Positions 315 through 37,661 of a DNA stretch of 44,517 nt are shown piece after piece; position 1 is the stretch's first letter; every line of letters begins with the position of its first letter. The DNA comes from Patescibacteria group bacterium. Its GTDB lineage: Bacteria; Patescibacteriota; Minisyncoccia; Minisyncoccales; Staskawiczbacteraceae. The notes under the pieces are model-generated. The model was given only the letters and a program-made list of their open reading frames with translations, was not told the DNA's origin and did not search any database. The translations under genes were made by a program, and so were the position numbers. The stretch is taken from positions 1 to 44,517 of the forward strand of contig JBBTQJ010000020.1 of NCBI GenBank assembly GCA_038065755.1, in the 5' to 3' direction.

Positions 315-379
315 CTTGTACTTATCAAAATAACATAAATAATTTACTGCGTCAACTTGCGCCGCAATTTTTATCGCAT

Positions 380-414
380 AATAAAATACACCCGTGCGCT
401 AGTGCGCGGGTGTA
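380..414 (-). terminator. intrinsic terminator downstream of mraY
   Basis: GC hairpin tacacccgtgcgc/gcgcgggtgta (387-414), followed on the minus strand by TTTTATT. Confidence 0.6.
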
Positions 415-442
415 TTTGCCACACAATACGCTCAACGAATAA

Positions 443-1537
443 TTAATTAAGCAGGCGGATGGCTGTTCCTATGATGGCCAGCACAATGCCGATAATCCAA
501 AAACGCATTGTTATTTTATACTGGGGCCAGCCAATGGCTTCGAGGTGATGATGAATAGGAGAGGAAAGAAAAATTTTCTTTTTTCTAAATTTTTTAGATA
601 AAAGCTGTAAAATTATAGAGCCGGTTTCAATTACCAAAAGGCCGGCAATAATAGGCAGAACAAAAACCGAATCAGTTAAAAAAGCAACAACAGACATTAC
701 CGTTGTAAGTCCTAAAATTCCGGTTTCGCCCATATAAAAACGGGCTGGCGGAATATTAAACCATAAAAAAGCAAATAATGTCCCCACAATAACCGCGCAA
801 AAAGCCGCCAAGTCAACCTTTCCCTGAGAAAAAGCGATAATTGTAAAAGCTCCAAAAATTGAGGCAAACGTCCCACCGGCTAAGCCGTCTAATCCGTCTA
901 TTATACCCCCCGACCAGCAGGCAATCATCACAACAATAAAAAGGGGAATATAAAAAAATCCCAAAGAAACCGGTCCAAGTAAAGGAATAGTTATTACATC
1001 CCATCCTAATTTCTGATAAAACCAAATACTGCCTATCAGCCCAATAAGGGTAATGATTAAAAGTCTTTTTTTAAGAGAAAGTCCGCCGCCAATATATTTG
1101 CCCACTAAAGTTTTTCCAAAAAAAAGCCTGCCAGACGAATTAGAAACAACCAAGATATCGTCTACAAGCCCTAATACCGAAGCAGATATCAAAGTAAAAA
1201 AAGGCAGCCAGGTTTGACTTCTTGATAAAAAATTAAGTTGCGATATTCTAGAATTAGGAAATATCAAAGAAAGCAAAAAAAATAAAAATATCATTGCAGT
1301 TGTCGTAATCCATATTAATAATCCTCCCATGCGCGGCGCCCTTGTTTCTCTTTCTTTGTGCAAACTGTTAAAAACAGTGGCCTCTTCTCCGCTTATTGTT
1401 TTTGTTCTTGCCTCCTTTTTCCAAAGTTTATGTTTATATAAAAAATTAATCAGCAAAGGGCACCAAAAAACAGCTGCAACAGAAGCCATAGCCGCCAATC
1501 CTAAAACTTTAATAATATTAAAAGTAAAAAAAGTCAT
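443..1537 (-). CDS. mraY: phospho-N-acetylmuramoyl-pentapeptide transferase
   Basis: 364 aa polytopic membrane protein with the DGLDGLAGG motif and overall MraY-like sequence. Confidence 0.9.
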   Translation of the reverse strand: MTFFTFNIIKVLGLAAMASVAAVFWCPLLINFLYKHKLWKKEARTKTISGEEATVFNSLHKERETRAPRMGGLLIWITTTAMIFLFFLLSLIFPNSRISQLNFLSRSQTWLPFFTLISASVLGLVDDILVVSNSSGRLFFGKTLVGKYIGGGLSLKKRLLIITLIGLIGSIWFYQKLGWDVITIPLLGPVSLGFFYIPLFIVVMIACWSGGIIDGLDGLAGGTFASIFGAFTIIAFSQGKVDLAAFCAVIVGTLFAFLWFNIPPARFYMGETGILGLTTVMSVVAFLTDSVFVLPIIAGLLVIETGSIILQLLSKKFRKKKIFLSSPIHHHLEAIGWPQYKITMRFWIIGIVLAIIGTAIRLLN

Positions 1538-1540
1538 TTT

Positions 1541-2521
1541 TTATTGCCACTTATACGCTGTTTCCACCCACTCAATCATTTTTTTCATTTCTAAAAATCT
1601 GTCGTTTGACCCCAAAATTACATTTATCAGATAACTGCCCTTTTTTGAATTTTTAACAGCCAAAAGAAGGCATTCTTTGGCGTCTTCGGTAAAGCCGGTT
1701 TTTCCTGCCACCGCTTCTGGAATATCTACGTCTAATAAAAGCTTATTGGTGTTTATAAGTTTTTTATACAAACTATTGTCTTCGTTATATAAATCAAATT
1801 CCTTTGTTCTGCTGATTTCTGCAATTACGGGATAATTATTTAAAAAATATTTTGTTAAAATGATTAAATCTTCGGCTGTGGAATAATTTTCTTTATCTAA
1901 TCCCGTTGAATCAATAAAATAAGTGTTTTTAAGCCCTATGGCCATTGCTTTTTTATTCATCAGGTCCACAAACTTTCCGTCTTCCATTGCTTCTGACAAA
2001 CTATATGATGCATGATTACTTGATTCAATAAGCATTAAATATAAAAGATTTTCCACAGACATATTTTTAACTGCAATCAACGGCCCCTGTTCGTCGGTTT
2101 TCATTGTTGTTTCCTCGCTGATTGCTATTTCTTCAGACAAGTCATAATTTTCCAAAGAAACAATGGCTGTCATCAGTTTTGCAAGGCTGGCTATAGTCAG
2201 TTTTTTTTGTTCGTCTTTTTTAAAAAGAATTTTATCTGGATTTTTAAGGTCGGTTTCAACCGATATAGCTGATTCTGAATCAATTTTCAGATCCTCTATC
2301 TGCCAGTTTCTTAACGGCAACTGGCTTTCTTCAAAAACTTTTTGCTGAACAGATGCCGCGTTGCCGGAAATGTTTCCCAAAAAAATATCTTTTTTTTGCC
2401 GGCTTATTTTCCATTCGGAAAAATCTATCAAGCCGTCAAAAAACCACTGCATCCCCCACCCTAAAATTAAAACGCATATGCAAAAAAAGAAAAAATTTTT
2501 GAACAAATTTTTATAATTCAT
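1541..2521 (-). CDS. serine-type D-Ala-D-Ala carboxypeptidase (PBP5-like, S11)
   Basis: N-terminal TM segment; SxxK (SLAK), SxN (SSN) and KTG (KTGFT) motifs. Confidence 0.8.
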   Translation of the reverse strand: MNYKNLFKNFFFFCICVLILGWGMQWFFDGLIDFSEWKISRQKKDIFLGNISGNAASVQQKVFEESQLPLRNWQIEDLKIDSESAISVETDLKNPDKILFKKDEQKKLTIASLAKLMTAIVSLENYDLSEEIAISEETTMKTDEQGPLIAVKNMSVENLLYLMLIESSNHASYSLSEAMEDGKFVDLMNKKAMAIGLKNTYFIDSTGLDKENYSTAEDLIILTKYFLNNYPVIAEISRTKEFDLYNEDNSLYKKLINTNKLLLDVDIPEAVAGKTGFTEDAKECLLLAVKNSKKGSYLINVILGSNDRFLEMKKMIEWVETAYKWQ

Positions 2522-2627
2522 TTTTTATTTTTTTTACGTTTTTCAGAAATTTTAAGTTGCGCTAATTTTATAAAAGTTACTAAAATAACAAGTCCGTATA
2601 TTATAGGTTTTATTGACTTTGCGCTGA

Positions 2628-4100
2628 TCATTTTTTAGCTGGCCTTTTTGCGGGCTTTTTTGCTTTATCTAATTTTTTCGCTTTTGTATTTGTAATAGAA
2701 ACCGTCTTAATCTGCAATTCTTTTAATTGTTTTATATCAACCTCCGAGGGGGCTTGCATCATTAAATCTGTAGCGTCTCCTGTTTTTGGAAACGCAATAA
2801 CTTCGCGAATTGACGGCTCGTTGTTTAAAATCATTAAAAATCTGTCTATACCTGGGGCAATTCCGCCGTGGGGCGGCGCGCCATATTTAAAAGCCTCCAG
2901 CATGTGGGAAAATTGGTTTTTTTGTTCACTGGTGAATCCAATCAAATTAAAAATTTTATTTTGTATTTTTGGATCGTGAATTCTGATGCTCCCGCCTCCA
3001 ATTTCGTAACCGTTTAAAATAAAATCGTGCTGATATGACTTGGCTTTCAATGGATCTGAATCAAGCAATGAAACATCTTCTTTTTTGGGGGCTGTAAACA
3101 TATGATGCGAAGGCGCTAATTTTTCGCCCGCTCCATAGAAAAAATCTTCTTTAGTCTGTTGCACAAAGAGCGGAAAGTCAACAACAAATGCAAACGCCAA
3201 TTCGTTTGGATCGTTTTTATTTTTTCTCAAGTCTGGCTTATCGCTATTGTACTTTTTTATCACCTCGGAATAAGGAATGCGCGGAAAAGGAACTTGCTGG
3301 ATTTTCTTTTCTGGAGCTATTATTTTTACGATTGCTGTGTATAATCTTTCTATTAAATCTAAAATATCTTCCTGATCTACAAAGCTCATTTCAAGGTCTA
3401 ATTGGGTAAATTCTGGCTGTCTGTCTCCCCTGGGGTCTTCGTCTCTGAAACACCTGGCTATTTGAAAATATTTTTCAAATCCTGCAACTTGCAAAAGTTG
3501 TTTATATTGCTGAGGAGATTGCGGAAGCGCATAAAACTTACCGTGATTTAATCTTGAAGGAACTAAATAATCTCTTGCTCCTTCTGGCGTTGGTTTTGTT
3601 AAAATTGGCGTTTCAATTTCAATAAAACCTTCTTTGTCCAAAAAATCCCTGATAAATTTTATAACTTTATGTCGCGCAATAAGATTGTTTTTCATTCTTT
3701 CCCGCCTTAAATCCAAATATCTGTATTTCATTCTGACCTCTTCTCCAATATCGTAACCGTCTCCTTCAATAGACAGGGGCAAGGTTTCTGCTTTTGATAA
3801 AACATTTAAAGATTCCACAGAAAGCTCAACCTGGCCTGTTTCCATTTTTGGATTTACCATTTGCTCGGGCCTTTTGACAATTTGGCCGATAATTTCCACC
3901 ACCCACTCGGGCCTTAATTGGCCGGCCAATTCATAGGTTTCTTTGTTTGAAGGGGTAAAAACCGTCTGCAAAATTCCGCTTCTGTCTCTAAGGTCAATGA
4001 ATAAAATTTTACCATGGGCCCTTCTGCTGTTTACCCACCCTGCCACTTTCACTTTTTCTCCGATATGTTTTGCTGTTTCGTTTATTAAAAACCTGTACAT
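2628..4100 (-). CDS. aspS: aspartyl-tRNA synthetase, bacterial-type core without a GAD insertion, Lys-rich C-terminal tail
   Basis: OB-fold N-terminus; class II motif 2 (FRDEDPRGDRQPEFTQLD); motif 3 (GIAPGIDRF). SDKPDLR runs almost directly into VVDFPLF. Confidence 0.9.
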   Translation of the reverse strand: MYRFLINETAKHIGEKVKVAGWVNSRRAHGKILFIDLRDRSGILQTVFTPSNKETYELAGQLRPEWVVEIIGQIVKRPEQMVNPKMETGQVELSVESLNVLSKAETLPLSIEGDGYDIGEEVRMKYRYLDLRRERMKNNLIARHKVIKFIRDFLDKEGFIEIETPILTKPTPEGARDYLVPSRLNHGKFYALPQSPQQYKQLLQVAGFEKYFQIARCFRDEDPRGDRQPEFTQLDLEMSFVDQEDILDLIERLYTAIVKIIAPEKKIQQVPFPRIPYSEVIKKYNSDKPDLRKNKNDPNELAFAFVVDFPLFVQQTKEDFFYGAGEKLAPSHHMFTAPKKEDVSLLDSDPLKAKSYQHDFILNGYEIGGGSIRIHDPKIQNKIFNLIGFTSEQKNQFSHMLEAFKYGAPPHGGIAPGIDRFLMILNNEPSIREVIAFPKTGDATDLMMQAPSEVDIKQLKELQIKTVSITNTKAKKLDKAKKPAKRPAKK

Positions 4101-4104: not shown

Positions 4105-5325
4105 TTATGAATTTTTTATTTTAATTTTTATAAATCTTCTTTTTCCGACCCTAATTATCTCTTTGTCTTTAATATATATTTCTTTTTTCCAATCAGTAAT
4201 TATCTCTTCTTTCCCGTCGGTGATTACGGCCGTACTGCCAGCATTAATCAACCTTTTTGCTTCGTTTTTTGACGGCGCCAACTTTGTGTCGCACAATAAA
4301 CCTAAAATAGAATAGATTTTTTTATCTGTTTCAAAAATTTCAATTTCCGAGGGTGTTTGCTTATCTCTGAAAATTTTATTGAATTCTTCTTCTGCTTTCA
4401 GCGCTTCTTTTTCTCCGTGATAAATTTTTACAACCTCTCTTGCCAATATGCTTTTTATATCTCGGGGAGAAGTTAAAAATTTTTGTTTTTCTTCTTTTAT
4501 TTTTTCTATTTCTTCTAAAGACATATCTGTTAGTAAATTAAAATATTTCCACATTAATTCATCTGGCAAAGACATAACCTTACTATACATTTGAAACGAG
4601 GATTCGTTTAGTCCAATATAATTTCCGTAGCTCTTGCTCATTTTTTTAACCCCATCGGTGCCCTCGAGAAGAGGAAGCGTAATAATATCCTGCTCTTGTA
4701 TATTGTATTTTTTTTGAACTTTTCTTCCCATAAGTAGATTAAACTTTTGATCTCTTCCGCCTATTTCTACATCCGATTTTAACTCAACTGAATCGTATCC
4801 TTGCAATAGAGGATAAATAAGCTCTAACATGCTTACATCTATGTCATTTTTGATTCGTTCTTTAAAGTCGTCTCTTTCTATAACTCTGGCAAATGTAAAT
4901 TTTGAGAATAACTCCATTAAAAACGCTACGCCCTTCTTTTTATACCATTCGTTATTATATCTTATTTCTGCTTTTTTTATTTCTAAAATCTTACTCGCTT
5001 GCCTTATGTAATCTTTCATGTTTTGTTTTACCTGTTTTTCCGTAAGCAGTTGTCTTTGAGCCGCCCTTCCGGAAGGATCGCCAATTGTAGCGGTAAAATC
5101 GCCTATAAGTAAAATAACTTTGTGGCCAATATCCTGAAATTGCCTTAATTTTTTAAGAGGTATAGAATGACCAATGTGCAAATCTGGAGATGTAGGATCA
5201 ATACCAAATTTAACTCTTAATTGCCTTCCTGACTTCAATTCTTTCTCTAGGTGATTTTTATCTATAATTTCGTCTACTCCCCTATTTAATATCTCCTCTA
5301 TTTTTTTTGCGTCTGTGTTTATCAT
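4105..5325 (-). CDS. tyrS: tyrosyl-tRNA synthetase
   Basis: HIGH (HIGH at DLHIGHS) and KMSKS motifs; S4-like C-terminus. Stop lies 4 nt before the aspS start. Confidence 0.9.
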   Translation of the reverse strand: MINTDAKKIEEILNRGVDEIIDKNHLEKELKSGRQLRVKFGIDPTSPDLHIGHSIPLKKLRQFQDIGHKVILLIGDFTATIGDPSGRAAQRQLLTEKQVKQNMKDYIRQASKILEIKKAEIRYNNEWYKKKGVAFLMELFSKFTFARVIERDDFKERIKNDIDVSMLELIYPLLQGYDSVELKSDVEIGGRDQKFNLLMGRKVQKKYNIQEQDIITLPLLEGTDGVKKMSKSYGNYIGLNESSFQMYSKVMSLPDELMWKYFNLLTDMSLEEIEKIKEEKQKFLTSPRDIKSILAREVVKIYHGEKEALKAEEEFNKIFRDKQTPSEIEIFETDKKIYSILGLLCDTKLAPSKNEAKRLINAGSTAVITDGKEEIITDWKKEIYIKDKEIIRVGKRRFIKIKIKNS

Positions 5326-5827: not shown

Positions 5828-7159
5828 TTAAAACCTGTCTGCTAATTTATAAATATCGCCGGCGCCCATTATTATTAAAACATCTATTTCTTTTATGTTT
5901 TTTTTAACAAAACTTTCAATTTCATTTGTCGCACAATAAAAAATGCTCTTCCGATGAATTTTTTCAACAAGTTTTTGCGAATTTATTTTCCTGCTTATTC
6001 CTTTTTCTTCCCGGCCGGCAACGTCATAAATATCAGTGATTATAATGTTGTCAACCGGCGCCAAGCGAAAAACTTTAACAAAATCCAAAAATAAATAATG
6101 TGTTCTCTGGCGCTGGTGCGGTTGAAAAACGCACAAAATTTTCTTGTTTAAATACTTTTCTCTTGCGGCTTTCAACGTTGCCGAAATTTCATTGGGATGA
6201 TGGGCATAATCGGAAATAACTATTATTTTTTTGCCGTTAACTTTGGCTTTTTTCTCTTCAAACCTTCTCCATGTTCCTTTAAATTCTGAAAGCGCTTTAA
6301 AAATTGTTTTATCTGGAATTTTTAATATCCTTGATGCCTGCAAAGTGGCTAAAGCATTAGAAACATTATGCTGTCCGGGAACTTTTATAATCTTTTTTAT
6401 TTTTTTTGTTTCATTGTCGTTGCGGGCGAAGCGAAACAATCTCAACCGCGGGGATTGCTTTATCGCTGCGCTCCTCGCAATGACGCTTAAATTTTTATCG
6501 TCGCCGTTAAAAACTAAAAATCCGTCTGCCGGCAGCCGCATAATAAAATTTTTAAATGCTTTTTTGACATTGGCAAACGATTTAAAATAATCCAAGTGTT
6601 CTTTGTCTATATTTGTAATCACAATTATATTAGGCGAATAATGCAAAAAAGAAGAGTCATATTCGCATGCCTCAATTACTAAAAACCTGCCCTTTCCATT
6701 CCTAAAATTACCGCCCCCGAACTCTTTGACTTTTGTGCCTACAATAACAGTAGGGTCAAGCCCGGCCTTAATCAAAACCAGAGCAATTATTGCGGTTGTG
6801 GTGCTTTTGCCGTGAGCTCCCGCAACAGCAACGGTAAAATATTGTTTTGTCAGCTCGCCAAGCGCTTGGGGATAGCTTTGCATTTTAATGCCCAATTTTT
6901 TTGCTTTTTTATATTCTAAATTATCAGATTTTACTGCCGGACTGTAAACAACTAAATCAATATCTGGCTTAATATTTTCTGCTTTTTGCCCGATATTTAT
7001 TTTTATTCTTTTGTCCGCCCGTAGGGGCAGGTTTTTCAAAAAATCTGTAGTTTCTGAAGCAGCCAAATCAGACCCCGAAACTTCGTGGCCTTTTGAAAAA
7101 TAATACTGAGCCAAAGCCGACACCCCAATCCCCCCAATGCCAATAAAATATATCTTCAT
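5828..7159 (-). CDS. murC: UDP-N-acetylmuramate--L-alanine ligase carrying an in-frame palindromic-repeat insertion
   Basis: N-terminal GIGGIGVS Rossmann motif; GAHGKSTT P-loop; Mur ligase middle and C-terminal domains. Repeat-encoded segment IARSAAIKQSPRLRLFRFARNDN. Confidence 0.9.
   Translation of the reverse strand: MKIYFIGIGGIGVSALAQYYFSKGHEVSGSDLAASETTDFLKNLPLRADKRIKINIGQKAENIKPDIDLVVYSPAVKSDNLEYKKAKKLGIKMQSYPQALGELTKQYFTVAVAGAHGKSTTTAIIALVLIKAGLDPTVIVGTKVKEFGGGNFRNGKGRFLVIEACEYDSSFLHYSPNIIVITNIDKEHLDYFKSFANVKKAFKNFIMRLPADGFLVFNGDDKNLSVIARSAAIKQSPRLRLFRFARNDNETKKIKKIIKVPGQHNVSNALATLQASRILKIPDKTIFKALSEFKGTWRRFEEKKAKVNGKKIIVISDYAHHPNEISATLKAAREKYLNKKILCVFQPHQRQRTHYLFLDFVKVFRLAPVDNIIITDIYDVAGREEKGISRKINSQKLVEKIHRKSIFYCATNEIESFVKKNIKEIDVLIIMGAGDIYKLADRF
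6411..6485. repeat. 'cgcaatgac' imperfect palindromic element, copy inside murC
   Basis: tcattgtcgttgcgggcgaagcgaaacaatc ... gattgctttatcgctgcgctcctcgcaatgacg. Its arms match those of the element at 31610-31692. Confidence 0.8.
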
Positions 7160-18288: not shown

Positions 18289-18340
18289 AATTCCCTCCTT
18301 TTCTATTGTCAACGAACACCTGAAAGAACATATTAATTAT

Positions 18341-18501: not shown

Positions 18502-18502
18502 T

Positions 18503-26546: not shown

Positions 26547-26575
26547 TATAGTTTCAATTATTTTTAATCCATTCT

Positions 26576-26662: not shown

Positions 26663-26664
26663 AG

Positions 26665-27096: not shown

Positions 27097-27114
27097 GTTT
27101 TTAAGATTTAAAAG

Positions 27115-27163
27115 TTATCCACAGCAAACTTGAATTATCCCACATTTATCCACAACTACCCAC
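27115..27163 (-). promoter_or_regulatory. putative MraZ operator: GTGG(G/A) direct repeats at 10-bp phase in the mraZ leader
   Basis: On the minus strand: GTGGGTAGTT GTGGATAAAT GTGGGATAAT (27163-27134), plus TGTGGATAA at 27123-27115. Confidence 0.55.
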
Positions 27164-27172
27164 TACATCTCA

Positions 27173-27202
27173 TTTATAACCTTTTTTATGGCACTCAGTC
27201 AA
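27173..27202 (-). promoter_or_regulatory. candidate mraZ promoter
   Basis: TTGACT (27197-27202 rc), 17-18 nt spacer, TATAAA (27173-27178 rc). Confidence 0.5.
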
Positions 27203-27511
27203 CACTTTTTATATATATCCCATTTTGTTCGTAAATGAGCATATTTTTCCACTCTTTATCCACACCCCACATATTATAATTTCATCACATAATAAAACAC
27301 ATCCACGCATCAACGCGTAGATGTATTTGTCGCATAATAAAACTTTTGCGAAAAAAACATGCCCTTATGTGTTTGCTATTCGCCCAAAGGATATAACACT
27401 ATAAATAACTATAAATAAAAAGTAATAATATAAAATCTGCCAAAACTACTACGATCGTAGTTTTTTTGTCAAATTTTGTTCTTAAAATATCGGATAATAA
27501 TAGTTTTACGT

Positions 27512-28217: not shown

Positions 28218-28541
28218 TTAAAAAAGACAGGTTACGGTGTTGACGGGAAACATATAATAGCAACTTTGTATACAAGCTGTGCGCACTACTTCTTCAATAA
28301 ATCCTCCCTCGTCTTCTCTGTCACATTCGGAAAAACATGATCCAAGAGCAACCAAAACACAATAGAAAAAATTACCAGAATCTGAAAAAGGTTCTGGATT
28401 GGGAATTATTGATTCGTCGGAAGATGTTGGAAAACTGCCTTTTAAATAATTCTTATCTATGACATTAAAAAAAATAGCCACTGAAAAAACGCTTGTTAAA
28501 ATAAGAATTAAACCGATTATTTTATTTGTCTTATTTTCCAT
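28218..28541 (-). CDS. small exported or membrane-anchored Cys-rich protein
   Basis: 107 aa; N-terminal hydrophobic anchor; 7 Cys in the C-terminal half. Last gene after the AAA+ gene. Confidence 0.45.
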   Translation of the reverse strand: MENKTNKIIGLILILTSVFSVAIFFNVIDKNYLKGSFPTSSDESIIPNPEPFSDSGNFFYCVLVALGSCFSECDREDEGGFIEEVVRTACIQSCYYMFPVNTVTCLF

Positions 28542-28595: not shown

Positions 28596-31199
28596 TTAAA
28601 GGTTGGTTTTTGTTACTTCAAAAGTTTCGGGGTTAATTTCAATTTTGTCGCCTTTTTTTATTGTTTCTGAAATTAGGGCCTCTGCAATATTATTTTCTAC
28701 TTTGTCCTGAATTACCCTTCTCATTTCTCTGGCGCCAAAGGCCGGCTTGTAAGAAAGCTCAACGATTTTTTGCTTTAAGGGCTCTGTAATTTCAAGATCA
28801 ATTTCTTTTTCTTTTAGATTTTTTTGAAGGGTTTTTAACATTAATCCGGCTATGTCTAAAAGATTTTCTTTGGTCAGGGGGTTAAAGGTTATAGTGGCGT
28901 CAAAACGGTTTATAAATTCCGGCCTAAAAATTCCTTTGTCAAAAAGAGAATTTAAAAGTTCGTCCTTATTTATTTTTCTTCCCGCCTGCACTTCTTTAAA
29001 AATATAATCTGCTCCGGCGTTAGAGGTGCAGATGATTATTGTGTTTGTAAAAACAACTTTTCTGCCCTGTCCGTCGGTAATGTGGCCTTCGTCTAAAATT
29101 TGCAAAAATAAATTTAAAATATTAGAGTGGGCTTTTTCAACCTCGTCAAATAAAATTAAAGAAAAAGGCGTCTCTCTTACCGGTGTTGTTAAAAGCCCTT
29201 GCATTTCTACCGGGCTCATAGAGCCAATCAACCGCGGAATATCTGAAATAGCCTGAAATTCCGACATATCAATTCTGATCATTTTTTCTTCTGCTTCAAC
29301 AGAGCCGGCTTTTTTAAATTTTTTAGAATCTTTTGTAAATTGGTTGCCAAAATAAATTTGAGATAAAGCTTTTGAAGTTTCTGTTTTACCCACTCCTGTG
29401 GGTCCTAAAAATAAAAAAGTTCCCATTGGCCTTTTTTTATGGCTAATACCAGCCCTTGCCCTTCTCATGGCAATAGATATTTCTTTTACCGCCTCTTCCT
29501 GGTTTATAATTCTCTGATGAATTAAATTTTCCAAATTAAGCAGAACTTCTTTTTCTTTAAATTCCATTTTTCCTATTGGTATTTCGGTTCTGTCGGAAAT
29601 AATTTTGGCAATATGGTGGGGCAAAACAGTTTTTTCTTTTATGGTCTGAATATATACCACCGCCTCGTCTAAAATATCTATGGCTTTTTTAGGAAAAGGA
29701 GTGCTTGGAAAATAACGGGATGTTAAATTTACTATTTCCCGTATACTGGGATACAAAATTAAAATTTTATACTTTTGCTCAAATTCTAGGGCTGAATTTT
29801 GTAAAATCCTGATTGTTTCTTCTTCTGTTACTTCTGATACTTCTATTTTTCTGAACAAATCGGCAAAAGAAGAATTTTTTTCTATATTTCTATGAAGGCC
29901 GTCGTAAGAAGTAATGCCTATAAACTGAAAACTTGGTATTGGCAGATATTTTGACAATATGCCGGAGATATCAATCATTCCCGGCTTTTGAATATCTTGC
30001 CCCACAAAGTTATGCAAATCTTCAATCACTAAAATAACATTGCCGGCCGCAACCACATCTTGAAATATCTGGTCTAAGGTCAGTTCCAGTTTTTCTGAAT
30101 CCTGAATTCTTGAAAGCAAAGAAGTCATATTTAATTCCACCACCCTTTTGTCGTTTAGTTCGGGCAAAGATTTGCCAAAATAACATTTTTGAGCAATTGC
30201 CTCTATAATGCTTTTTCTTCCGGTTCCCGGTTCGCCTATTAATAAAACATTAGACAGATTAGATCTTGATAAAATCATTTCTGTTTCTTCTATTTCTTTT
30301 TGGTGCCCCACAACTTCTCTAAATATCCATTTTTTAACTATGTTTCTCCAGTCTGTGGAAAATTGGTCTAAATTAATAGTGTATCCTGAAGCCCAATCTT
30401 TTCCCAAAGACCCCTGCTTTGACAAATTTTCCTGCGTCCAAAACTTTTTACTTAATTGTAAAATATTTTCTGCAGAATCCAGCCACAATGATATATTTTC
30501 CACATCTTTGTCTTTTAGATCATATTCAATTAAAACTTTTTTAAAAAATTCATTTTTCCTGGCAAGGGCAATGAAAATTTCTTTTTCTCCGATTGTTTTG
30601 TGCTTTATTTCGTTGGAAATGGCCAGCGCCTCTTTTATCAACTCTTCAAAATCAGGAGAAAATAATTCTGTAAATTTTTTCTGCCTTTGCTGTTTCTCTA
30701 AATAATTTTTCGAATCTGCCTGAATTTTTGCAACATCCAGGCCCAGCCTTAAAGAAAGAAGCTGTATATTTTTGCTTGTTTTTAATGCTCCATAAAAAAG
30801 AGCCGTTGAATTAATTTCTGAAATTTTTCTCTTTTTACAAAATTTTACAGCTTCTTCAACAATTTCGGCCGACTCTATGCTTAAAAAATCCGCCAAATTG
30901 TATTTTTCTAAATCTGAAACCACGTCAGACAGCTGTATTTTAATTTCCGGATTTTTAATTTTTAATTTTAAAAACAAAGATAGTTCCCAAAAAAATAGAA
31001 ACAAGATCAAAAAAACAGCCTCTATTTTTACGGCCAAAGAGCTTAAAATAAGCCCCCAATAAACCAACGGAATTAAAAACAAAGAAAGGGCGAATAAATA
31101 TAAAAACAAATTATACAAAAAGCCGGAAAACTCAAAAAATGGATTCTTCCCTGTTTTTACCGCATAATAAACTGCTGTGGTTTTAATGTTAAAATTCAT
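28596..31199 (-). CDS. membrane-anchored ClpB/ClpC-like double-AAA+ protein with degenerate first nucleotide-binding domain
   Basis: Start set at MNFNIK (ATGA overlap with the upstream stop). N-terminal TM helices and two Clp_N-like repeats. NBD1 has GEPGTGRKS and VIEDLH; NBD2 has canonical GPTGVGKTE and LFDEVEKAH. Confidence 0.7.
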   Translation of the reverse strand: MNFNIKTTAVYYAVKTGKNPFFEFSGFLYNLFLYLFALSLFLIPLVYWGLILSSLAVKIEAVFLILFLFFWELSLFLKLKIKNPEIKIQLSDVVSDLEKYNLADFLSIESAEIVEEAVKFCKKRKISEINSTALFYGALKTSKNIQLLSLRLGLDVAKIQADSKNYLEKQQRQKKFTELFSPDFEELIKEALAISNEIKHKTIGEKEIFIALARKNEFFKKVLIEYDLKDKDVENISLWLDSAENILQLSKKFWTQENLSKQGSLGKDWASGYTINLDQFSTDWRNIVKKWIFREVVGHQKEIEETEMILSRSNLSNVLLIGEPGTGRKSIIEAIAQKCYFGKSLPELNDKRVVELNMTSLLSRIQDSEKLELTLDQIFQDVVAAGNVILVIEDLHNFVGQDIQKPGMIDISGILSKYLPIPSFQFIGITSYDGLHRNIEKNSSFADLFRKIEVSEVTEEETIRILQNSALEFEQKYKILILYPSIREIVNLTSRYFPSTPFPKKAIDILDEAVVYIQTIKEKTVLPHHIAKIISDRTEIPIGKMEFKEKEVLLNLENLIHQRIINQEEAVKEISIAMRRARAGISHKKRPMGTFLFLGPTGVGKTETSKALSQIYFGNQFTKDSKKFKKAGSVEAEEKMIRIDMSEFQAISDIPRLIGSMSPVEMQGLLTTPVRETPFSLILFDEVEKAHSNILNLFLQILDEGHITDGQGRKVVFTNTIIICTSNAGADYIFKEVQAGRKINKDELLNSLFDKGIFRPEFINRFDATITFNPLTKENLLDIAGLMLKTLQKNLKEKEIDLEITEPLKQKIVELSYKPAFGAREMRRVIQDKVENNIAEALISETIKKGDKIEINPETFEVTKTNL

Positions 31200-32144: not shown

Positions 32145-32813
32145 TCACCTTTCGTTATCTTCAAACACGTCTTCTACTGTTTTTTTAACAATATCTGTAA
32201 ATTTATCCCAATCCGGTTTTATCCCAATTTTTTCTTTTTTTATTTCTTCGGTAATCTTTTTGAATTCTTCGCCCTTTTCAGAAAAAAACTTTTTTCGCCT
32301 TTCTTTTAATAATATATCTTTTTCTTCTTTTGTTAAATTGTCTAAGGCGCCCGGCTCCAAATACATTTCCTTACTTAAATCAGTTGCTTGCATATAAAGA
32401 TCTCTTATCTTATCAAAAGATTGCTTAATTTTTAAAGACGTTTCTGGGTTGTCTTCATAATATTCGCCAAGATGTTTTTGCAGATATTCCCAGCCCCTAT
32501 CCCAAGCCCTTTGTTCTTCTGAACGAACGGCTTGAAAATTATCCAAATCAGCGTCGTAATTTTTCCCCTCTTCAATAAGATGACCGACCTCGTGGCTGGC
32601 AACGGCAAAGGAAATCGCCTCGTCGGAATCTGGCAAATAAATGTCATCGGGCGAATAGGCTCTTCCCCACAGCTCACTGTCAAAAGAAGGGATTTCTTTA
32701 ACTTCTTGCGGCGCATTGCTGGACTTTTTGATAATAATCACTGGTTTTTCTTCTTTTTCGGGACTTTCTCCTTTGGGGTTTTCTTTAGAATTAAAAAATT
32801 TTTCTGAAAACAT
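32145..32813 (-). CDS. putative zinc metallopeptidase (HExxH)
   Basis: HEVGH motif in a 222-aa acidic protein. No further family assignment. Confidence 0.45.
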   Translation of the reverse strand: MFSEKFFNSKENPKGESPEKEEKPVIIIKKSSNAPQEVKEIPSFDSELWGRAYSPDDIYLPDSDEAISFAVASHEVGHLIEEGKNYDADLDNFQAVRSEEQRAWDRGWEYLQKHLGEYYEDNPETSLKIKQSFDKIRDLYMQATDLSKEMYLEPGALDNLTKEEKDILLKERRKKFFSEKGEEFKKITEEIKKEKIGIKPDWDKFTDIVKKTVEDVFEDNER

Positions 32814-32903
32814 ATTTATTTTTATTTGTGATAGCTTATGTCAAACCTAACCCGTCTCTTAATCTAACTCTTTTATTATTTGTCGCATAATAAATACTGG
32901 GTA

Positions 32904-32996
32904 TTGACAACAAATTATGATTTGCTATAATAATAATATCACGATGAGAGGATTACCAAAGGGTTTTGTCCCGAGGGAATGCCTCTCTTTTTTTTT
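32904..32996 (+). ncRNA. candidate ~60-nt sRNA with its own promoter and terminator
   Basis: TTGACA (32904-32909), 16-nt spacer, TATAAT (32926-32931). Then hairpin GAGAGG...CCTCTC (32946-32987) and a 9-T run. Confidence 0.45.
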
Positions 32997-33483
32997 ATTT
33001 CTCTAATTTATTCTTGAATAACTGAATATTAACAATAAAATTGCTGAACTTTTTTAATAACGAAGAATACTTTTTATTTGGAACAATTATTTTTAATAAT
33101 TTATCGTTATTAATTAAATGCTCAACTAAACAATAAAAATCACCGTCGCCAGAAACGATAATTGCCTTGTCATAATTATTATATTCAATCATTGTATGCA
33201 ATACCAGCTCCGCATCAACATTTCCTTTTATTTTTATTTTACCATTTTCTTTTATCTCCATTGTCGGCTTAAACACACAGATAAATCCTGCTTTTTGCAA
33301 TTCGGTATATATAGATTGATTATAAAAAACATATCCGATAAATAAAAACGCTTTTTCAATTTTATACTTATCTTTCAAAAATACTCTAAAGCGGCGAAAA
33401 TTTAATTTCCACCCCTGGCTTTTTACGCCCAAATTTAAATTCTGACTGTCTATAAATGCATAATTATTTTCCTTGGGGTCCAT
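32995..33483 (-). CDS. NYN-domain (LabA/DUF88-like) putative RNase
   Basis: AFIDSQNL near the N-terminus and VSGDGDF motif. Confidence 0.7.
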   Translation of the reverse strand: MDPKENNYAFIDSQNLNLGVKSQGWKLNFRRFRVFLKDKYKIEKAFLFIGYVFYNQSIYTELQKAGFICVFKPTMEIKENGKIKIKGNVDAELVLHTMIEYNNYDKAIIVSGDGDFYCLVEHLINNDKLLKIIVPNKKYSSLLKKFSNFIVNIQLFKNKLEK

Positions 33484-33583
33484 AATATATTTTATTTTTA
33501 TTTTAAATTTTTATATTCGTCGCATAATAGTACCACCGATGGGTCGGTAGCACTAAAATGTCGCGTAATAAAATACACATAAA

Positions 33584-33958
33584 CTATTCAAAAATTTTGC
33601 CGCTTATAATTTCCTGCCTTATGTCTTCGGGGATTGGAATTTCTTCACCGGGTTTTGATATGCCGGGATATCGCCAGGCGCTGATTATTTTTCTTAGATC
33701 TTTGGCGTCTTTATACATTATCCATATTTCGCCAGGCGCTCTTTTGGGCTTTTGCCAAGCGCGAGCCAATGTTATTTTTTTTTCTTTAAAAAACACTTTA
33801 TTTGTTCTCATTACAGCTGTGGTTCCCGGCGCTATCCCTTTTTCTTTTCTTTCGGGCTTGTAAAGTATGTTTAATAATTTTTGTTTTGAAAGTCCGTATT
33901 GCTTCATTTTTATTTTTGAGTGCTCTGTCCAGTGTAATTTTCTGAAAGAAATAGACAT
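33584..33958 (-). CDS. small protein, DUF4258-like
   Basis: WTEHSKIKMKQYGLSKQKLLNIL resembles the DUF4258 N-terminal motif. Starts 12 nt after tRNA-Val. Confidence 0.4.
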   Translation of the reverse strand: MSISFRKLHWTEHSKIKMKQYGLSKQKLLNILYKPERKEKGIAPGTTAVMRTNKVFFKEKKITLARAWQKPKRAPGEIWIMYKDAKDLRKIISAWRYPGISKPGEEIPIPEDIRQEIISGKIFE

Positions 33959-33969
33959 AATTAAATTTG

Positions 33970-34042
33970 TGGACGGGACAGGATTCGAACCTGTAACCCC
34001 TGCAATGTGAATGCAGTGCTCTGACCATTGAGCTACTCGTCC
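33970..34042 (-). tRNA. tRNA-Val (anticodon CAC)
   Basis: Hand fold: GGACGAG/CCCGTCC acceptor (one A-C mismatch), D-arm GCTC-AATGGTCA-GAGC, anticodon loop TTCACAT, T-arm ACAGG-TTCGAAT-CCTGT. Confidence 0.8.
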
Positions 34043-34151
34043 GCTTGTTTTATATATTTATCTATTTTACCATTTTTTAAGTAAAAAGCACAAGAAAAAA
34101 ATCACACCCCCCCATTGTGGAGAATGTGATTTATAATTAATCGTTGGTTGG

Positions 34152-34625
34152 CTATTCGTCAGGGAAGCCCTTAATTTCAATTTTAGGATATTTTTTAAAC
34201 TCGCGCTTTTTTTCTTTGACCCGGCTTTGGTAGGTCAAAACAAAAATTTTATCAAAACCAAGATAAGCGGTAAGCGCAAAAATATCTCCATTAACGTGGC
34301 AAAGAACAGACCCAATGTCTAAAACCGGAATCACCACTGTAGCTATAACTCCTCTTGATGCCAGCAGATCCTGAACTTTTTCCTGATTTTCCTCCAATAT
34401 ATCCCTGGCTAACTGAGATTCTTTAAAACTCTCTGTCTCTCTGCCCAATGGCCCGTGTTTGCCAACTTTAAAGCCTGCTTTTTCAAAGGCTTCATTTATC
34501 TGTTTGCCCCCGCCCACAAGGATTACGGTAAAATATTCTGCTGAAATTCTTCTTATCCACTCAAGGACATCATCTCTTTCGCATAAATCACCGGAAATTT
34601 TTACAAGCGCTGTTTGCCTCGCCAT
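34152..34625 (-). CDS. short amino-acid-kinase-fold protein (157 aa)
   Basis: VKISGD and VGGGKQIN motifs of the AAK family. Start set at MARQ (ATG 34625) after GGGAGG. Confidence 0.5.
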   Translation of the reverse strand: MARQTALVKISGDLCERDDVLEWIRRISAEYFTVILVGGGKQINEAFEKAGFKVGKHGPLGRETESFKESQLARDILEENQEKVQDLLASRGVIATVVIPVLDIGSVLCHVNGDIFALTAYLGFDKIFVLTYQSRVKEKKREFKKYPKIEIKGFPDE

Positions 34626-34785
34626 CTCTTTTGCCTCCCAAAAAGATTTGAAAAGAACCAAATAAAAATTAACAAAAAATTAGAAAAATGTCAATATTTG
34701 TCGCACAATAAAATACGGGTAAAACAATAAAACAACGGCTTATTTAATTTTAACTTTTTATGCAACGGATTCAAATTATTGAATT

Positions 34786-36321
34786 TTAAATTTTAAACAA
34801 AGCAGCTGTTTTTTTAAGGGTTTTTCCGCCAGCTCCCCAGACGGATAAAAAATCATTGATGAATTTTTGCGGCAAATGCTTGTCTTCTAAAAAAGACGAT
34901 AAGGTTAAGGCAACGGAAAGAATTATGTGATACTCTTCTAAATTTTCCTGTTTAGCTTTTATATAAGCTGGATGAAAATTATTTATCCAAATTTTATTTT
35001 CTAACATTCTAGCAACCGGATCTTTTACGCTTCTATTTTCAAAACCAATAATTAAAGAGGGTAATTTATTGCCTTTCTTTTCTGGAGAAATATTCTTTTT
35101 TACTTCCTGTTTTTCTTTTTCTTTTTTAACGCCTTCCTGACCGCCATTATTATTATCCATTGTTTTGTTTTCTGGCGGCAGATTGTCTTTAACTATGCTT
35201 ACTAGCTGTGCCTCTGTTGATTCAGAAAAAACCGACTCTTTTTGTCTGCTGGTTTTTAAGCCTAATAACGGAGTTAATTCCGGAAAGTTTTTTAAAACGC
35301 TTCTTAAGGTTTTTTCAATTTCCTTAGACAATAATTTGTATTGTTTTTGAGAAGATTCCAGTTCTAAATTTTCTCCAAACTCTTTTAAAATGGGAATTAC
35401 TGCTTCTTGAATAGATTTTCTGTGCAAATAATATTTTTTCAAACTTGCAGCGTCTTTTAAAAAATCCATTTTATTGGTTGTTAAAATTTCTGACAATTCA
35501 GGTATTTCCGCCATTCCATAAATCTGTCCGTGTTCTTTTGGCCAGATGCCAAGCCACTCCCACCCTGATTTAATGACCTTTCCGTAAGTTGAAACGCCCA
35601 ACCCCTGAAAGGGCGCAGTGGCTGCGCCGTCGTATTTAGCCAAAAAACCGGTTCCTGCTAATCGTCTGTTTAAACGTATTTGAAATGTTTTAGACGCAGC
35701 AGGTAAATTATATTCAAAAGAAATTTTTTTGCCGTTTATAAAAAATTCCACTCCTTTTTTATAAACGTGTTTTAAAATCGAACTAAACGGCTCTTGGTGA
35801 AAAAGGGGATAAAAATGATTATATGTTGTTTCTGCAATAAACTTTTCTGACAACAGCGGAGAATTTGAATTTTTAAAAAAAATACTTACGGCGGTTCCTT
35901 TTTCGGGCAGGTTTTTCCCTGAAAACGGAATAAATTTCCAGGGGGCCGATGTTTCGTTTTTTAAATGCCATTCCGCGGCGCATCTCGAGCCGTAGCTACC
36001 CCTTGTTTCTGTTTGCACTTTTTCAGCTATTAACAAAGAAAGCTTGGCGCCGATTCCGGCAAACCCAATTCCCCTGCCCTTTATTTTTGTAGTAGCGGCA
36101 ATGTTGTGATAATTTGTCAGCTCACCCCTTTTCATCCCCTTGCCGTTATCTGCCGCAGTTAAAGTATTGTTCAAACAATCAACATAAAAAGAAATACGGC
36201 TAGCTTTAGAATCTAGCGCGTTGGCGATTAATTCCAATAAAATAATCTCTTCTATTGTAATGGTGTAGCTATCCTTGATGTCTTCTAAAAGATGTTTTAA
36301 ATTAACCTTTGTCTCACGCAT
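34786..36321 (-). CDS. GHKL-superfamily ATPase (HATPase_c_3/MORC-like N-terminal domain) with uncharacterised C-terminus
   Basis: N-box ELIANALDS; G1 DNGKGM; G2 GRGIGFAGIG; 511 aa. Confidence 0.65.
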   Translation of the reverse strand: MRETKVNLKHLLEDIKDSYTITIEEIILLELIANALDSKASRISFYVDCLNNTLTAADNGKGMKRGELTNYHNIAATTKIKGRGIGFAGIGAKLSLLIAEKVQTETRGSYGSRCAAEWHLKNETSAPWKFIPFSGKNLPEKGTAVSIFFKNSNSPLLSEKFIAETTYNHFYPLFHQEPFSSILKHVYKKGVEFFINGKKISFEYNLPAASKTFQIRLNRRLAGTGFLAKYDGAATAPFQGLGVSTYGKVIKSGWEWLGIWPKEHGQIYGMAEIPELSEILTTNKMDFLKDAASLKKYYLHRKSIQEAVIPILKEFGENLELESSQKQYKLLSKEIEKTLRSVLKNFPELTPLLGLKTSRQKESVFSESTEAQLVSIVKDNLPPENKTMDNNNGGQEGVKKEKEKQEVKKNISPEKKGNKLPSLIIGFENRSVKDPVARMLENKIWINNFHPAYIKAKQENLEEYHIILSVALTLSSFLEDKHLPQKFINDFLSVWGAGGKTLKKTAALFKI

Positions 36322-36419
36322 AATTTTTAAATTTATTCAAAAACAATAACGCAATCCCTATTTTTAGAGTATATCTTATTTCTCCAATATTTCAATAATA
36401 ATATTGTCGCACAATAAAA

Positions 36420-36441
36420 CAGTCCCGCCTTGGCGGGACTG
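36420..36441 (-). terminator. intrinsic terminator after rplL
   Basis: cagtcccgcc-tt-ggcgggactg hairpin followed by TTTTATT on the minus strand. Confidence 0.7.
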
Positions 36442-36862: not shown

Positions 36863-36872
36863 ATTTTTTTAT

Positions 36873-36951
36873 AAGCGAGGCAATAAATTTTTTGAAGGCC
36901 TCAGGACACGAAGTGCCTGATAGCCGGAGAAAAAATTTGATTGCCGAGCGT
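36873..36951 (-). repeat. intercistronic structured element, family B copy 2 (rplJ-rplL spacer)
   Basis: Same terminal blocks as 26576-26662, with a different apical hairpin (tcaggacac-gaa-gtgcctga). Confidence 0.8.
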
Positions 36952-36963
36952 TTAATTGTAATT

Positions 36964-37467
36964 TTATTGTTTTTCTTTATTTTCTCTTATTTTATCTAAC
37001 ACCCTCACAAAGCTTGCTATAGGGCCCGAAAGTGAGCCGACCAATCTGCTTAATAATTCAGGTCTTGGCGGTATGCTGGCCAAAGCCAAAACCCTGTCTT
37101 TTTCTATAAATTTATTTTCAAATAATCCGCCTAAAATTTTAAAATTTTCCTGCTCTTTAGCAAATTTGTTTGAAATTCTAGCCGGAGCAATTTCGTCGTC
37201 TATGCCGAAAACCAATGCCAGCTGACCGGGAATATTTTCTTTTATTTTCTGCCAAAAAGAAATGTTTGACTGGCCAAAGGCAATTCTTACCAATGTTTTC
37301 TTGGCGATTTTTAAAGAGCAACCGGCTTCTTTCAAATTCTTTCTTAAACCAAACATATCTTTTGAGCTTACTTTGGAAAAATCAACAAAAACCAATGATT
37401 TTTGTTTTGAAATATTTTCTTTTAAGCTATTAATTTGATTTTGCTTTTGTTCTTTTGTTAATGCCAT
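36964..37467 (-). CDS. rplJ: 50S ribosomal protein L10
   Basis: 167 aa, L10-like, directly upstream of rplL. Confidence 0.9.
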   Translation of the reverse strand: MALTKEQKQNQINSLKENISKQKSLVFVDFSKVSSKDMFGLRKNLKEAGCSLKIAKKTLVRIAFGQSNISFWQKIKENIPGQLALVFGIDDEIAPARISNKFAKEQENFKILGGLFENKFIEKDRVLALASIPPRPELLSRLVGSLSGPIASFVRVLDKIRENKEKQ

Positions 37468-37587
37468 ATAATAAAAAATCTGCTTACGCAGACAAATTAA
37501 AAATTATTTTAATTTTTAACCTCGGCAGGATTTATTCCCTTGACTACACTCGGGACACCTGCTGTCTGCGGCTTAATTAATTCTATA
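37468..37587 (-). promoter_or_regulatory. rplJ leader with terminator/antiterminator alternative (L10-leader-like)
   Basis: TCTGC-GTAA-GCAGA plus U6 (37479-37492 rc) just before the ATG. Upstream CCGCAGACA can pair with TGTCTGCG. Confidence 0.55.
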
Positions 37588-37593
37588 TAATAT

Positions 37594-37622
37594 ATCTTAA
37601 TCTAATTGTCAAAATATGTCAA
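37594..37622 (-). promoter_or_regulatory. rplJ promoter
   Basis: TTGACA (37617-37622 rc), 17-nt spacer, TAAGAT (37594-37599 rc). Confidence 0.6.
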
Positions 37623-37661
37623 TGATTTTGTCGCACCTGCCTGCGCAGGCAGGCAATAAAA

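Follow-up and report, generated by a model that had tools for sequence, protein, structure and literature searches.

A dispersed 17-nucleotide gene-end repeat of Candidatus Staskawiczbacteria and a LAGLIDADG-fold protein as its candidate reader

WhiA, a domesticated LAGLIDADG transcription factor of Gram-positive bacteria, has many genomic sites and controls its own expression. Copies of repetitive extragenic palindromes (REPs) lie after genes and not in divergent promoter regions. In a REPtron, a single-copy, vertically inherited, housekeeping-like gene that stems from a mobile-element nuclease has dispersed repeats beside it (PMC8266576). Here we describe a 17-nucleotide (nt) motif in a stretch of 44,517 nt from a Patescibacteria group bacterium of Hainich groundwater (GenBank assembly GCA_038065755.1, contig JBBTQJ010000020.1); this whole stretch is called the window. 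The repeat, its bounds, distribution and orientation rule, its operator-like architecture at one gene and the fold of the protein encoded there are results of this analysis. With a probability of roughly one half, we read the 17-mer as the site recognised by a LAGLIDADG protein that is domesticated and autoregulated, the site being dispersed to mark gene boundaries.

When up to three mismatches were allowed, TTTGTCGCAYAATAAAA matched the window 13 times, always on the plus strand, against 1.66 matches expected, and none of 100 shuffles reached 13. One further copy on the same strand was split. The 13-mer GTCGCACAATAAA was found four times exactly and six times at one mismatch, compared to 0.11 expected. 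An earlier first-pass annotation, made from the letters alone, had counted about 12 copies in one orientation and four exact 13-mers beyond chance, and both counts were borne out. Since nearly all genes of the window lie on the minus strand, the motif reads tTTTATTRTGCGACAAa on the coding strand, and 14 of the 15 matches of its core ATTRTGCGAC were on that strand. A sequence logo of 42 intergenic copies, drawn from numerous genomes with 32-44% GC, showed about 17 informative positions with an information content of about 24 bits and no conservation in the flanks, indicating that the copies are not fragments of a longer mobile repeat, a possibility that the annotation had raised. The GCG centre and the T-run were asymmetric and invariant. 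Only TTGT and ACAA of the 17-nt unit can pair, and a long hairpin is formed by split variants alone.

Species-representative genomes were covered by a scan for the exact 17-mer. Among the matches listed, it was present in at least about 16 stretches of Staskawiczbacteria assemblies, in one Parcubacteria genome and in several mislabelled metagenome-assembled genomes of Patescibacteria; the remaining exact matches were scattered and single. Those in other phyla were set aside, some of them being coding coincidences, as in UvrB, where LSHNKTLA encodes the antisense 17-mer; for the Pelagibacteraceae matches, a conserved gene is the probable source. Viral contigs gave 25 single matches and no enrichment. 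The motif is a dispersed, oriented, mostly extragenic repeat common to Ca. Staskawiczbacteria and sister Parcubacteria, a group of uncultured groundwater bacteria.

Its placement relative to genes was determined with 67 additional copies in 481 kb of loci that had been picked by another criterion (the doublets described below), here called non-ascertained copies. For these, the upstream gene was co-oriented in 40 cases and opposite in 8 (p = 3e-6), whereas the downstream gene was unbiased (21 versus 30); copies within coding sequences were sense in 11 cases and antisense in 2. The 9-nt core was sense 20 times and antisense once in 166 kb of syntenic loci. Outside the window, 25 of 50 copies were no more than 21 nt from the upstream stop codon, 10 of them no more than 3 nt. 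Spacers with a copy made up 23% of the convergent, 10% of the co-directional and 7% of the divergent class (Fisher p = 0.004, convergent versus divergent), and 20 of the 48 non-ascertained intergenic copies were housed in convergent spacers. From the orientation bias of the upstream gene, the proximity to stop codons and the preference for convergent spacers it follows that the motif is tied to the 3' end of the preceding gene, not to promoters or replication direction. A replication-oriented signal like Chi or KOPS (FtsK-orienting sequences) was considered, as orientation does track GC skew, but was rejected because the copies are mainly intergenic, are commoner in convergent than in divergent spacers and track the upstream gene. 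A terminator hairpin lay within 40 nt downstream of 14% of copies compared to 4% of controls, while hairpins abutting the T-run, frequent in the window, were not enriched over controls in 78 copies. The density was about one copy per 3-7 kb and differed widely among close relatives. Within gltX, a copy encoding ALLLCDK about 240 nt before the stop codon was exact in six of seven non-ascertained genomes with diverging flanks, and was also found in the window's own genome; gene-internal copies are thus under constraint at the DNA level.

The candidate reader emerged from tandem copies. A metagenome scan for two copies 8-38 nt apart yielded 119 loci, with 60 unique low-GC doublets. The gaps peaked at 9-11 nt (29 of 60, p = 2e-14) and at 18-22 nt, giving centre-to-centre spacings of about 24 and 34 bp, as expected for proteins on the same face of the helix. 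About 40 of the 60 were directly upstream of the same conserved gene of about 165 amino acids (aa), which belongs to Pfam LAGLIDADG_1 (E = 1e-12 to 1e-15) and starts 25-50 nt from the doublet on the opposite strand; on the other side, a gene for an Xer-like tyrosine recombinase of about 320 aa often ended 7-30 nt away. The consensus of 46 unique LAGLIDADG promoters was TTGTCGCAyAATtaaataTtTg.TAtAAT, in which TTGTCG of the proximal copy is the -35, exactly 17 nt from an extended -10 (TTGTCG-17-TATAAT). In the class with a gap of 20, the two copies are separated by a stretch that includes TTGACA, and the spacer is occupied by the proximal copy. Such an arrangement is classic for an autoregulated DNA-binding protein. 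Exceptional copies that are antisense to both neighbours include those at the LAGLIDADG locus, where L065-604 and L053-6402 were confirmed. Among loci found through the protein first, L284 carried the same doublet and L254 a single copy on the -35. L281, from a sister lineage whose protein is about 45% identical and has lost the catalytic residue, had a single copy there, spanning about +5 to +21; its five dispersed copies end in ACAGG, a variant specific to this lineage. The order murD-ftsW-murG-gltX-...-xer-LAGLIDADG-uppS was conserved across lineages, and xer-LAGLIDADG stayed together even where the LAGLIDADG proteins were only about 40-50% identical.

A C/T-rich stretch of about 45 nt (TTTTTAGTACTCTCACTTCCCC...) without Rfam match was observed beside motif copies or bracketed by them. 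It lay between uppS and the LAGLIDADG gene in L140, L148, L160, L199, L232, L234 and L247, and was also present in L184, L216 and L246. Rfam scans of the window and 10 related loci returned tRNAs and the L10 leader only, and no family covered the motif or the G-rich stretch adjoining some copies.

The LAGLIDADG protein had 666 homologues, and the top 120 shared 70-100% identity, comparable to the conservation of L10; several carried the annotation LAGLIDADG endonuclease, Staskawiczbacteria. Profile matches (Pfam, E = 1e-15; PDB, E = 3e-19) agreed with the alpha-beta-beta-alpha-beta-beta-alpha fold of LAGLIDADG proteins. The AlphaFold2 model (mean confidence score, pLDDT, 82) matched I-OnuI and I-LtrI domains and homodimeric I-TnaI in Foldseek, with template-modelling (TM) scores of 0.70-0.78 to I-TnaI. 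A nearly invariant block, GCFDLQFRKDTRHERT.SPTYYRWK.QF, was placed by this model in the first beta-strands. The corresponding strands of solved LAGLIDADG enzymes contact DNA. The protein is a single domain of 165 aa without a helix-turn-helix (HTH) and presumably forms a homodimer. More than 90% of Staskawiczbacteria family members had the catalytic acidic residue D16 (NNDG), which is N in P0240 and P0241. All nearer sister clusters had lost it (AS, KL, AA, ES and others), and this loss argues for DNA binding and not cutting. The gene was free-standing, outside any intron, intein or mobile cassette, and each genome held many intact sites. Its L10-like conservation, conserved synteny and free-standing state suggest a domesticated host protein, not a selfish endonuclease.

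The most likely reader of the motif would therefore be sought in this vertically inherited, single-copy, single-domain protein of about 165 aa encoded downstream of the xer-like gene. It may repress its own promoter through the proximal copy, with one or two phased copies and with TTGTCG serving as the -35 or overlapping it. The hundreds of other copies, sense and just past stop codons, would then be protein-bound boundary marks insulating neighbouring units. Such marks could be polar barriers, at which a polymerase travelling in the sense direction passes to the terminator and one coming from the ACAAA side is blocked; this would be self-consistent with the enrichment in convergent spacers and with the reversed orientation at the xer-LAGLIDADG junction, where read-through from xer would be blocked. 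The sites may also be fragile or recombinogenic, as they have gained a central GC palindrome, show local duplication around hairpins and flank accessory genes. Tentatively, and with considerable doubt, we also consider that the LAGLIDADG protein and the Xer-like recombinase form an undescribed kind of LAGLIDADG REPtron and jointly maintain, read and possibly spread the 17-bp site marking gene ends, as a polar transcription boundary and as a place where accessory genes and small palindromes land or are exchanged.

Several points weigh against the LAGLIDADG reading. We infer binding and what it achieves; promoter architecture and co-distribution are what links protein and motif. As the doublet loci were found with the motif pattern, only the identity of the neighbouring gene is independent evidence. 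L283, with xer and the LAGLIDADG gene joined in one operon, had dispersed copies and no clean copy in the immediate promoter; the relative L132 had no copy in 20 kb; and no LAGLIDADG gene was seen on the contig of the window itself, as far as L255, which ends after gltX. The motif is mostly asymmetric, palindromic only in TTGT-GCG-ACAA and most conserved at its centre. A symmetric 22-bp site of a LAGLIDADG homodimer would look different, and a symmetric dimer leaves the T-run and the strict orientation unexplained. A plain roadblock terminator is unlikely, since copies 0-8 nt past a stop codon would stall the polymerase within the gene.

The window (about 34% GC) contains the division and cell wall (dcw) cluster with mraZ, rsmH, a penicillin-binding protein gene, murC and mraY, in addition to tyrS, pyrB, rplU, a clpB-like gene, rplJ-rplL with L10 leader, uppS and an isopentenyl-phosphate kinase gene. 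Its L10 protein was 75-88% identical to L10 proteins named Ca. Staskawiczbacteria. The copies and associated features, given with the strand on which they are read, are as follows.
370-386, minus: motif copy TTTTATTATGCGATAAA, 1 mismatch; a GC hairpin downstream of mraY adjoins it with its 3' side.
387-414, minus: GC hairpin TACACCCGCGCACTAGCGCACGGGTGTA separating two motif copies; a related hairpin adjoins a motif copy in L065.
415-431, minus: upstream, degenerate member of the pair, gcgTATTGTGTGGCAAA; the stop codon of mraY precedes it by 11 nt.
3668-3684, minus: weak copy TCTTATTGCGCGACATA, 3 mismatches, within a class II aminoacyl-tRNA synthetase gene; possibly due to chance.
4285-4301, minus: sense-strand copy in tyrS, 2 mismatches, 180 nt before the stop codon, at a site shared with relative L078.
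5925-5941, minus: exact sense-strand copy in murC, 97 nt before the stop codon.
18534-18550, minus: copy 7 nt after the rplU stop codon, with TTGATA (18525-18530) 3 nt downstream.
27281-27297, minus: degenerate copy TTTTATTATGTGATGAA; in relatives, the palindromic core ATTGTGCGACAAT is retained at this position, immediately before the MraZ boxes.
27298-27325, minus: hairpin TACATCTACGCGTTGATGCGTGGATGTG between two copies, with a terminator-like score and the T-run of the next copy as its tail.
27326-27342, minus: exact copy in the mraZ upstream region, upstream member of motif-hairpin-motif.
31156-31172, minus: degenerate copy GTTTATTATGCGGTAAA upstream of the clpB-like gene; the stop codon of a 128-aa gene lies 23 nt before it.
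32879-32895, minus: copy with 1 mismatch between the NYN gene and a 222-aa gene.
33516-33532, minus: degenerate copy TACTATTATGCGACGAA upstream of the NYN gene, overlapping the 3' arm of a hairpin.
33530-33553, minus: hairpin GTGCTACCGACCCATCGGTGGTAC (GTACCACCGATGGGTCGGTGGTAC); its reverse complement abuts motif copies in L078 (near 353) and L241 (near 9260).
33557-33573, minus: copy TTTTATTACGCGACATT, 10 nt after the stop codon of a conserved 124-aa gene.
34697-34713, minus: exact copy, preceded at 73 nt by the HATPase stop codon and followed at 2 nt by TTGACA (34689-34694).
36403-36419, minus: copy following the rplL terminator hairpin (about 36420-36441), to which its T-run serves as tail; TTGAAA-16-TATACT lies 7 nt downstream.
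37627-37661, minus: split copy TTTTATTG / CCTGCCTGCGCAGGCAGG / TGCGACAAA, starting directly after the mltG stop codon and ending 4 nt before the rplJ -35.
37594-37622, minus: rplJ promoter TTGACA-N17-TAAGAT, kept in seven genomes with or without the motif and placing the motif at about -40 to -74.

These positions agree with the first-pass annotation, all of whose copies were correctly located; the weak copies at 3668-3684 (in a coding sequence) and 31156-31172 are additions. Its placement of copies at transcription-unit boundaries also holds: the intergenic copies of the window were all between co-directional genes, 0 to 225 nt past the upstream stop codon, and copies in relatives follow the stop codon of a co-oriented gene. 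The window also has two spacers between divergent and two between convergent genes, all four without a copy. The motif-hairpin-motif units it described were recovered at 370-431, 27281-27342 and 33516-33573, with at least one degenerate copy in each pair and both copies at three mismatches in the last. A GC hairpin was followed directly by the T-run at the copies at 370, 27281, 33516 and 36403. The hairpin GTACCACCGATGGGTCGGTGGTAC at 33530-33553, which adjoins motif copies in different genomes, had its loop inverted relative to the motif in the window. The -35-like hexamers at 34689-34694, 37617-37622, 18525-18530 and 36390-36395 were confirmed, but at a distance of 2-7 nt instead of the 4-9 nt claimed. 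Many ordinary terminators and TTGACA-17-TAnnnT promoters of the window were without the motif.

The relation of motif and promoter was evaluated at rplJ, around which six syntenic relatives were retrieved, giving seven genomes together with the window. The promoter TTGACA-N17-TAAGAT (with ATAGATTAAGAT) was conserved in all seven Staskawiczbacteria genomes (window, 37594-37622; L127-L134, at about 9800-9900) and agreed with the start of the Rfam L10 leader. A copy directly upstream of it was present in two of the seven, split in the window and intact in L129 (TTTTATTGTGCGACAGG-gtg-TTGACA), and absent from the other five. As the promoter stands alone in five of seven genomes, the motif is an add-on and not a promoter part. 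The motif as a promoter in itself, with TATTRT as the -10 or TTGTCG as an antisense -35 on the other strand, was ruled out: the L10 leader and TTGACA-17-TAAGAT put the start downstream, and no -10 follows TTGTCG on the plus strand in window copies, the LAGLIDADG gene being the exception to this ruling.

Five of the seven genomes had the palindromic core ATTGTGCGACAAT at the same place ahead of the MraZ operator boxes, a sign of selection on the DNA, and L129 had a terminator hairpin there flanked by two copies, both with the private variant ATTGCGCGACAAT. The region itself (27100-27330, minus strand, upstream of mraZ) contained two clusters of GTGG[GA] boxes with 10-bp spacing, resembling MraZ operators. 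One cluster was just downstream of a TTGACT-17-TATAAA promoter and the other about 100 nt upstream, and both were kept in L127, L129, L131, L133 and L134.

The 18-bp palindrome CCTGCCTGCGCAGGCAGG (37636-37653) occurred once in the window, and its removal gave back the 17-mer, as had been claimed. The orthologous rplJ promoter of L129 has the copy intact, and the split copy of the window is an insertion into a once-intact copy. The suggestion of a hairpin-insertion hotspot gained support as well, because the identical GC palindrome (CCTGCCTGC..GCAGGCAGG) split copies at three further loci, making four independent loci. It was inserted after ATTG in the window and L156 and after ATTGTG in L167 and at the L168/L226/L139 locus, and was found nowhere else in the Staskawiczbacteria sequence examined. 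A split copy can fold with its two halves pairing. Partial tandem duplications of the motif were frequent.

Larger inserts were also flanked by copies (M), as in mltG-M-two ORFs-M-rplJ of L129, where ORF denotes an open reading frame, and xer-M-4 kb-M-LAGLIDADG of L254. In the window, genes absent from relatives (the 511-aa HATPase, a 169-aa protein, NYN and a 222-aa protein) were each preceded by a copy, which explains the cluster of copies at 32.8-37.7 kb that had already been pointed out.

Five genes of the window were absent from the syntenic relatives (28218-28541 and 32145-36321), encoding HATPase_c_3 (511 aa), a 169-aa protein, NYN (162 aa), a 222-aa protein and a 107-aa protein, and look like accessory insertions; PADLOC gave weak matches only for the accessory genes. 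At 9252-11705, an 817-aa HerA/TrwB-like (coupling-protein-like) ATPase had a weak PADLOC match to mad8/HerA. A long-hairpin repeat resembling a miniature inverted-repeat transposable element (CGCTCGGCAATCAAATTTTT...AAAAATTTATTGCCTCGCTTA; RNA fold -29.7 kcal/mol, z = -6.6) was found in the spacer downstream of mraZ (26547-26664) and in the rplJ-rplL spacer (36863-36963). A similar sequence lay upstream of the L171 LAGLIDADG gene, and a three-way alignment did not confirm the relationship. An inverted-repeat element, GTTGCGAAATAA...TTATTTCGCAAC around CAAATTTGCTAAAATTCGTCGGC, was present in the long pyrB leader (18313-18557) and, inverted, at 43873-44517. On the plus strand at 32904-32995, a perfect sigma-70 promoter (TTGACA-16-TATAAT with TG), a hairpin and T9 predict a small RNA of about 55 nt opposite to the genes, near the 3' end of the NYN gene, and the motif at 32879-32895 is 8 nt upstream of this -35. 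At 1-370 (minus strand), as in L255 (11096-11584), a TTGACG-17-TATTTT promoter was followed by about 300 nt of non-coding sequence and a 446-aa ORF; the non-coding stretch contained three TTTTAAAAAACTA repeats and the inverted repeat GGGCGAGAC...GTCTCGCCC.

Other explanations of the motif were weighed against the LAGLIDADG reading. The first-pass annotation had proposed the operator of a GntR-type winged-helix regulator, and TTGTGCGACAA does fit the dyad TnGTnnnACnA. In its wider form, an operator of a dimeric HTH global regulator, GntR-like or other, with the LAGLIDADG gene as one strong target, agrees with the short palindrome TTGT-N3-ACAA, with the retention of the palindromic core alone upstream of the MraZ boxes and with the phased tandem sites, which suggest cooperative binding. 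However, the TnGTnnnACnA shape does not by itself identify the binder, and no GntR or winged-helix gene was detected by Pfam and NCBIfam scans of about 38 of about 46 window ORFs or beside the doublets. The gene that consistently carries phased promoter copies encodes a LAGLIDADG-fold protein, the only family consistently with operator-like copies; the GCG centre and T-run are asymmetric and invariant; and about 24 bits far exceed the need of a global regulator. We hold such an operator to be unlikely. The adjacent Xer-like recombinase could use the motif as an att-like site, maybe with the LAGLIDADG protein as specificity factor, so that units of gene and motif are inserted or exchanged, with a loose likeness to integron cassettes. 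The xer-LAGLIDADG synteny across lineages at about 40-50% LAGLIDADG identity, the motif-insert-motif arrangements of L129 and L254, the copies preceding the window's accessory genes, the private variant shared by both hairpin-flanking copies of L129 and the resemblance of GTCGCATAAT to the XerC arm of dif favour this exchange. Yet the motif lacks the inverted arms and 6-8 bp spacer of a tyrosine-recombinase core, the recombinase scores best as XerD/XerC (about 220 bits) and reaches 95 bits with the integron-integrase model against a cut-off of 265, and many copies lie at conserved orthologous positions or within essential genes. Insertion-free relatives had no copy at the empty sites after rplL and after the 124-aa gene, indicating that no site-by-site recombination insertion took place there. 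The exchange site is thus rather improbable. A dif site was rejected because likeness was limited to the half-site of the XerC arm and no 11-6-11 structure was found.

Also rather improbable is an action in RNA, in which UUUUAUUGUGCGACAAA would be a signal of the 3' untranslated region for stability, processing or an RNA-binding protein and the copies in LAGLIDADG promoters would be a separate use. The sense orientation after genes and within coding sequences (11 versus 2), the half of copies within 21 nt of a stop codon, the terminator hairpins downstream (14% versus 4% of controls), so that many copies are transcribed, and the folded split copy that brings the halves together agree with it. 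It is opposed by several window copies that lie past a terminator hairpin, with only the T-run transcribed, by the antisense copies on the LAGLIDADG -35, by the G/A variation at position 8 that breaks a small stem in the sense RNA and by the lack of an Rfam match. The annotation's fused terminator/promoter held in that some copies provide a terminator T-tract and some are 2-4 nt upstream of a -35; it did not hold as a general description, as five of seven genomes keep the rplJ promoter and have no motif there, many terminators and promoters have no motif and promoter distances vary. We consider it very unlikely that the motif is a terminator T-tract plus a UP-element-like enhancer that evolved repeatedly with no dedicated protein. 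The order of T-run, GC core and A-run, TTGACA 2-4 nt downstream of six copies and the four window copies abutting terminator hairpins would fit, but the invariant GTGCGAC is left unexplained, abutting hairpins are not enriched overall and the copies in convergent spacers (20 of 48) have no downstream promoter. Least credible of all is another suggestion of the annotation, a DNA uptake signal whose copies built up through biased uptake in Patescibacteria with natural competence. A motif that is sharp, rich in information and shared by the whole family, with AT flanks around a GC core and turnover at orthologous sites, would be expected of it; the strong gene orientation (20:1 in syntenic loci), the proximity to stop codons, the low and uneven density even in close relatives (none in 20 kb of L132) and the phased operator-like copies at one gene contradict it, and no support was found in the literature. 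TIGR-Tas arrays occur in Staskawiczbacteria, flank tas genes and carry box C/D (bioRxiv 10.64898/2026.09.09.750476). Guide arrays of this kind were excluded for the motif, which is dispersed, and no Nop or Tas protein was among the about 38 of about 46 window ORFs scanned.

The genomes of bacteria of the candidate phyla radiation (CPR) are tiny, encode few regulators that can be recognised and have hardly any cis-element defined by experiment. In the literature searched, neither the motif nor, for Parcubacteria and the CPR at large, a LAGLIDADG regulator encoded by a free-standing gene was described; the papers found on LAGLIDADG proteins there dealt with rRNA-intron endonucleases only. A genome-wide, family-conserved 17-nt element with a specific candidate protein offers a testable entry into gene punctuation and insulation in the CPR, the protein being small and easily expressed and the site short and exact. 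If the LAGLIDADG reading is true, this would be a second independent nuclease tamed together with a dispersed repeat, after REPs and their RAYTs (REP-associated tyrosine transposases), and the LAGLIDADG scaffold would have gained another use besides that in WhiA. The repeated insertion of the palindrome and the accessory genes bracketed by motif copies suggest that the sites also have a role in genome plasticity.

The sites of homing endonucleases such as I-CreI and I-TnaI resemble the motif in their AT-rich flanks, GC centre and partial dyad, the protein fold matches, and insertions occur exactly at the centre. In contrast, the motif is asymmetric with its centre most conserved, hundreds of intact sites are present in the host genome, and the gene is free-standing with conservation like that of a ribosomal protein. 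Integrons share co-oriented sites near stop codons, runs of accessory genes and sites, and an Xer-related recombinase beside a site pair, whereas the motif has no attC architecture (R''-L''...L'-R', 57-141 bp), is scattered over the chromosome including essential genes, and is accompanied by a XerC/D-like recombinase. The DNA uptake sequences of Neisseria and uptake signal sequences of Pasteurellaceae are likewise short, exact and family-specific, with a GC core and enrichment near gene ends, but they occur about equally in both orientations at about one copy per kb, unlike the strongly gene-oriented motif with its lower, uneven density and operator-like layout at one gene.

With REP/RAYT systems the motif shares a high-copy, short, extragenic, genome-wide repeat and an adjoining single-copy gene derived from a nuclease, and the spacer preferences (convergent 23%, co-directional 10%, divergent 7%; upstream gene 40:8) place it after genes as they do REPs. 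The gene here, however, is LAGLIDADG_1 and not an HUH Y1 transposase (Y1_Tnp). REPs are imperfect palindromes of 20-40 nt forming a stem-loop, with a conserved GTAG or CGTC at one end, while the motif is 17 nt long with an internal palindrome of 4 bp and no GTAG/CGTC tag in its logo. The gene-proximal copies are direct, phased and on the -35, operator-like rather than transposon ends, and the motif is probably recognised as duplex DNA. WhiA is similar in that a homing-endonuclease scaffold was kept as a conserved chromosomal DNA-binding protein, here with the catalytic residue lost in sister clusters. It differs in having two LAGLIDADG domains and a C-terminal HTH in place of a single 165-aa domain, and the present motif, found at gene ends, is long and nearly invariant over its 17 nt. 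Since the defining features of REPtron and WhiA are not shared, the likeness to both is one of function and not of membership.

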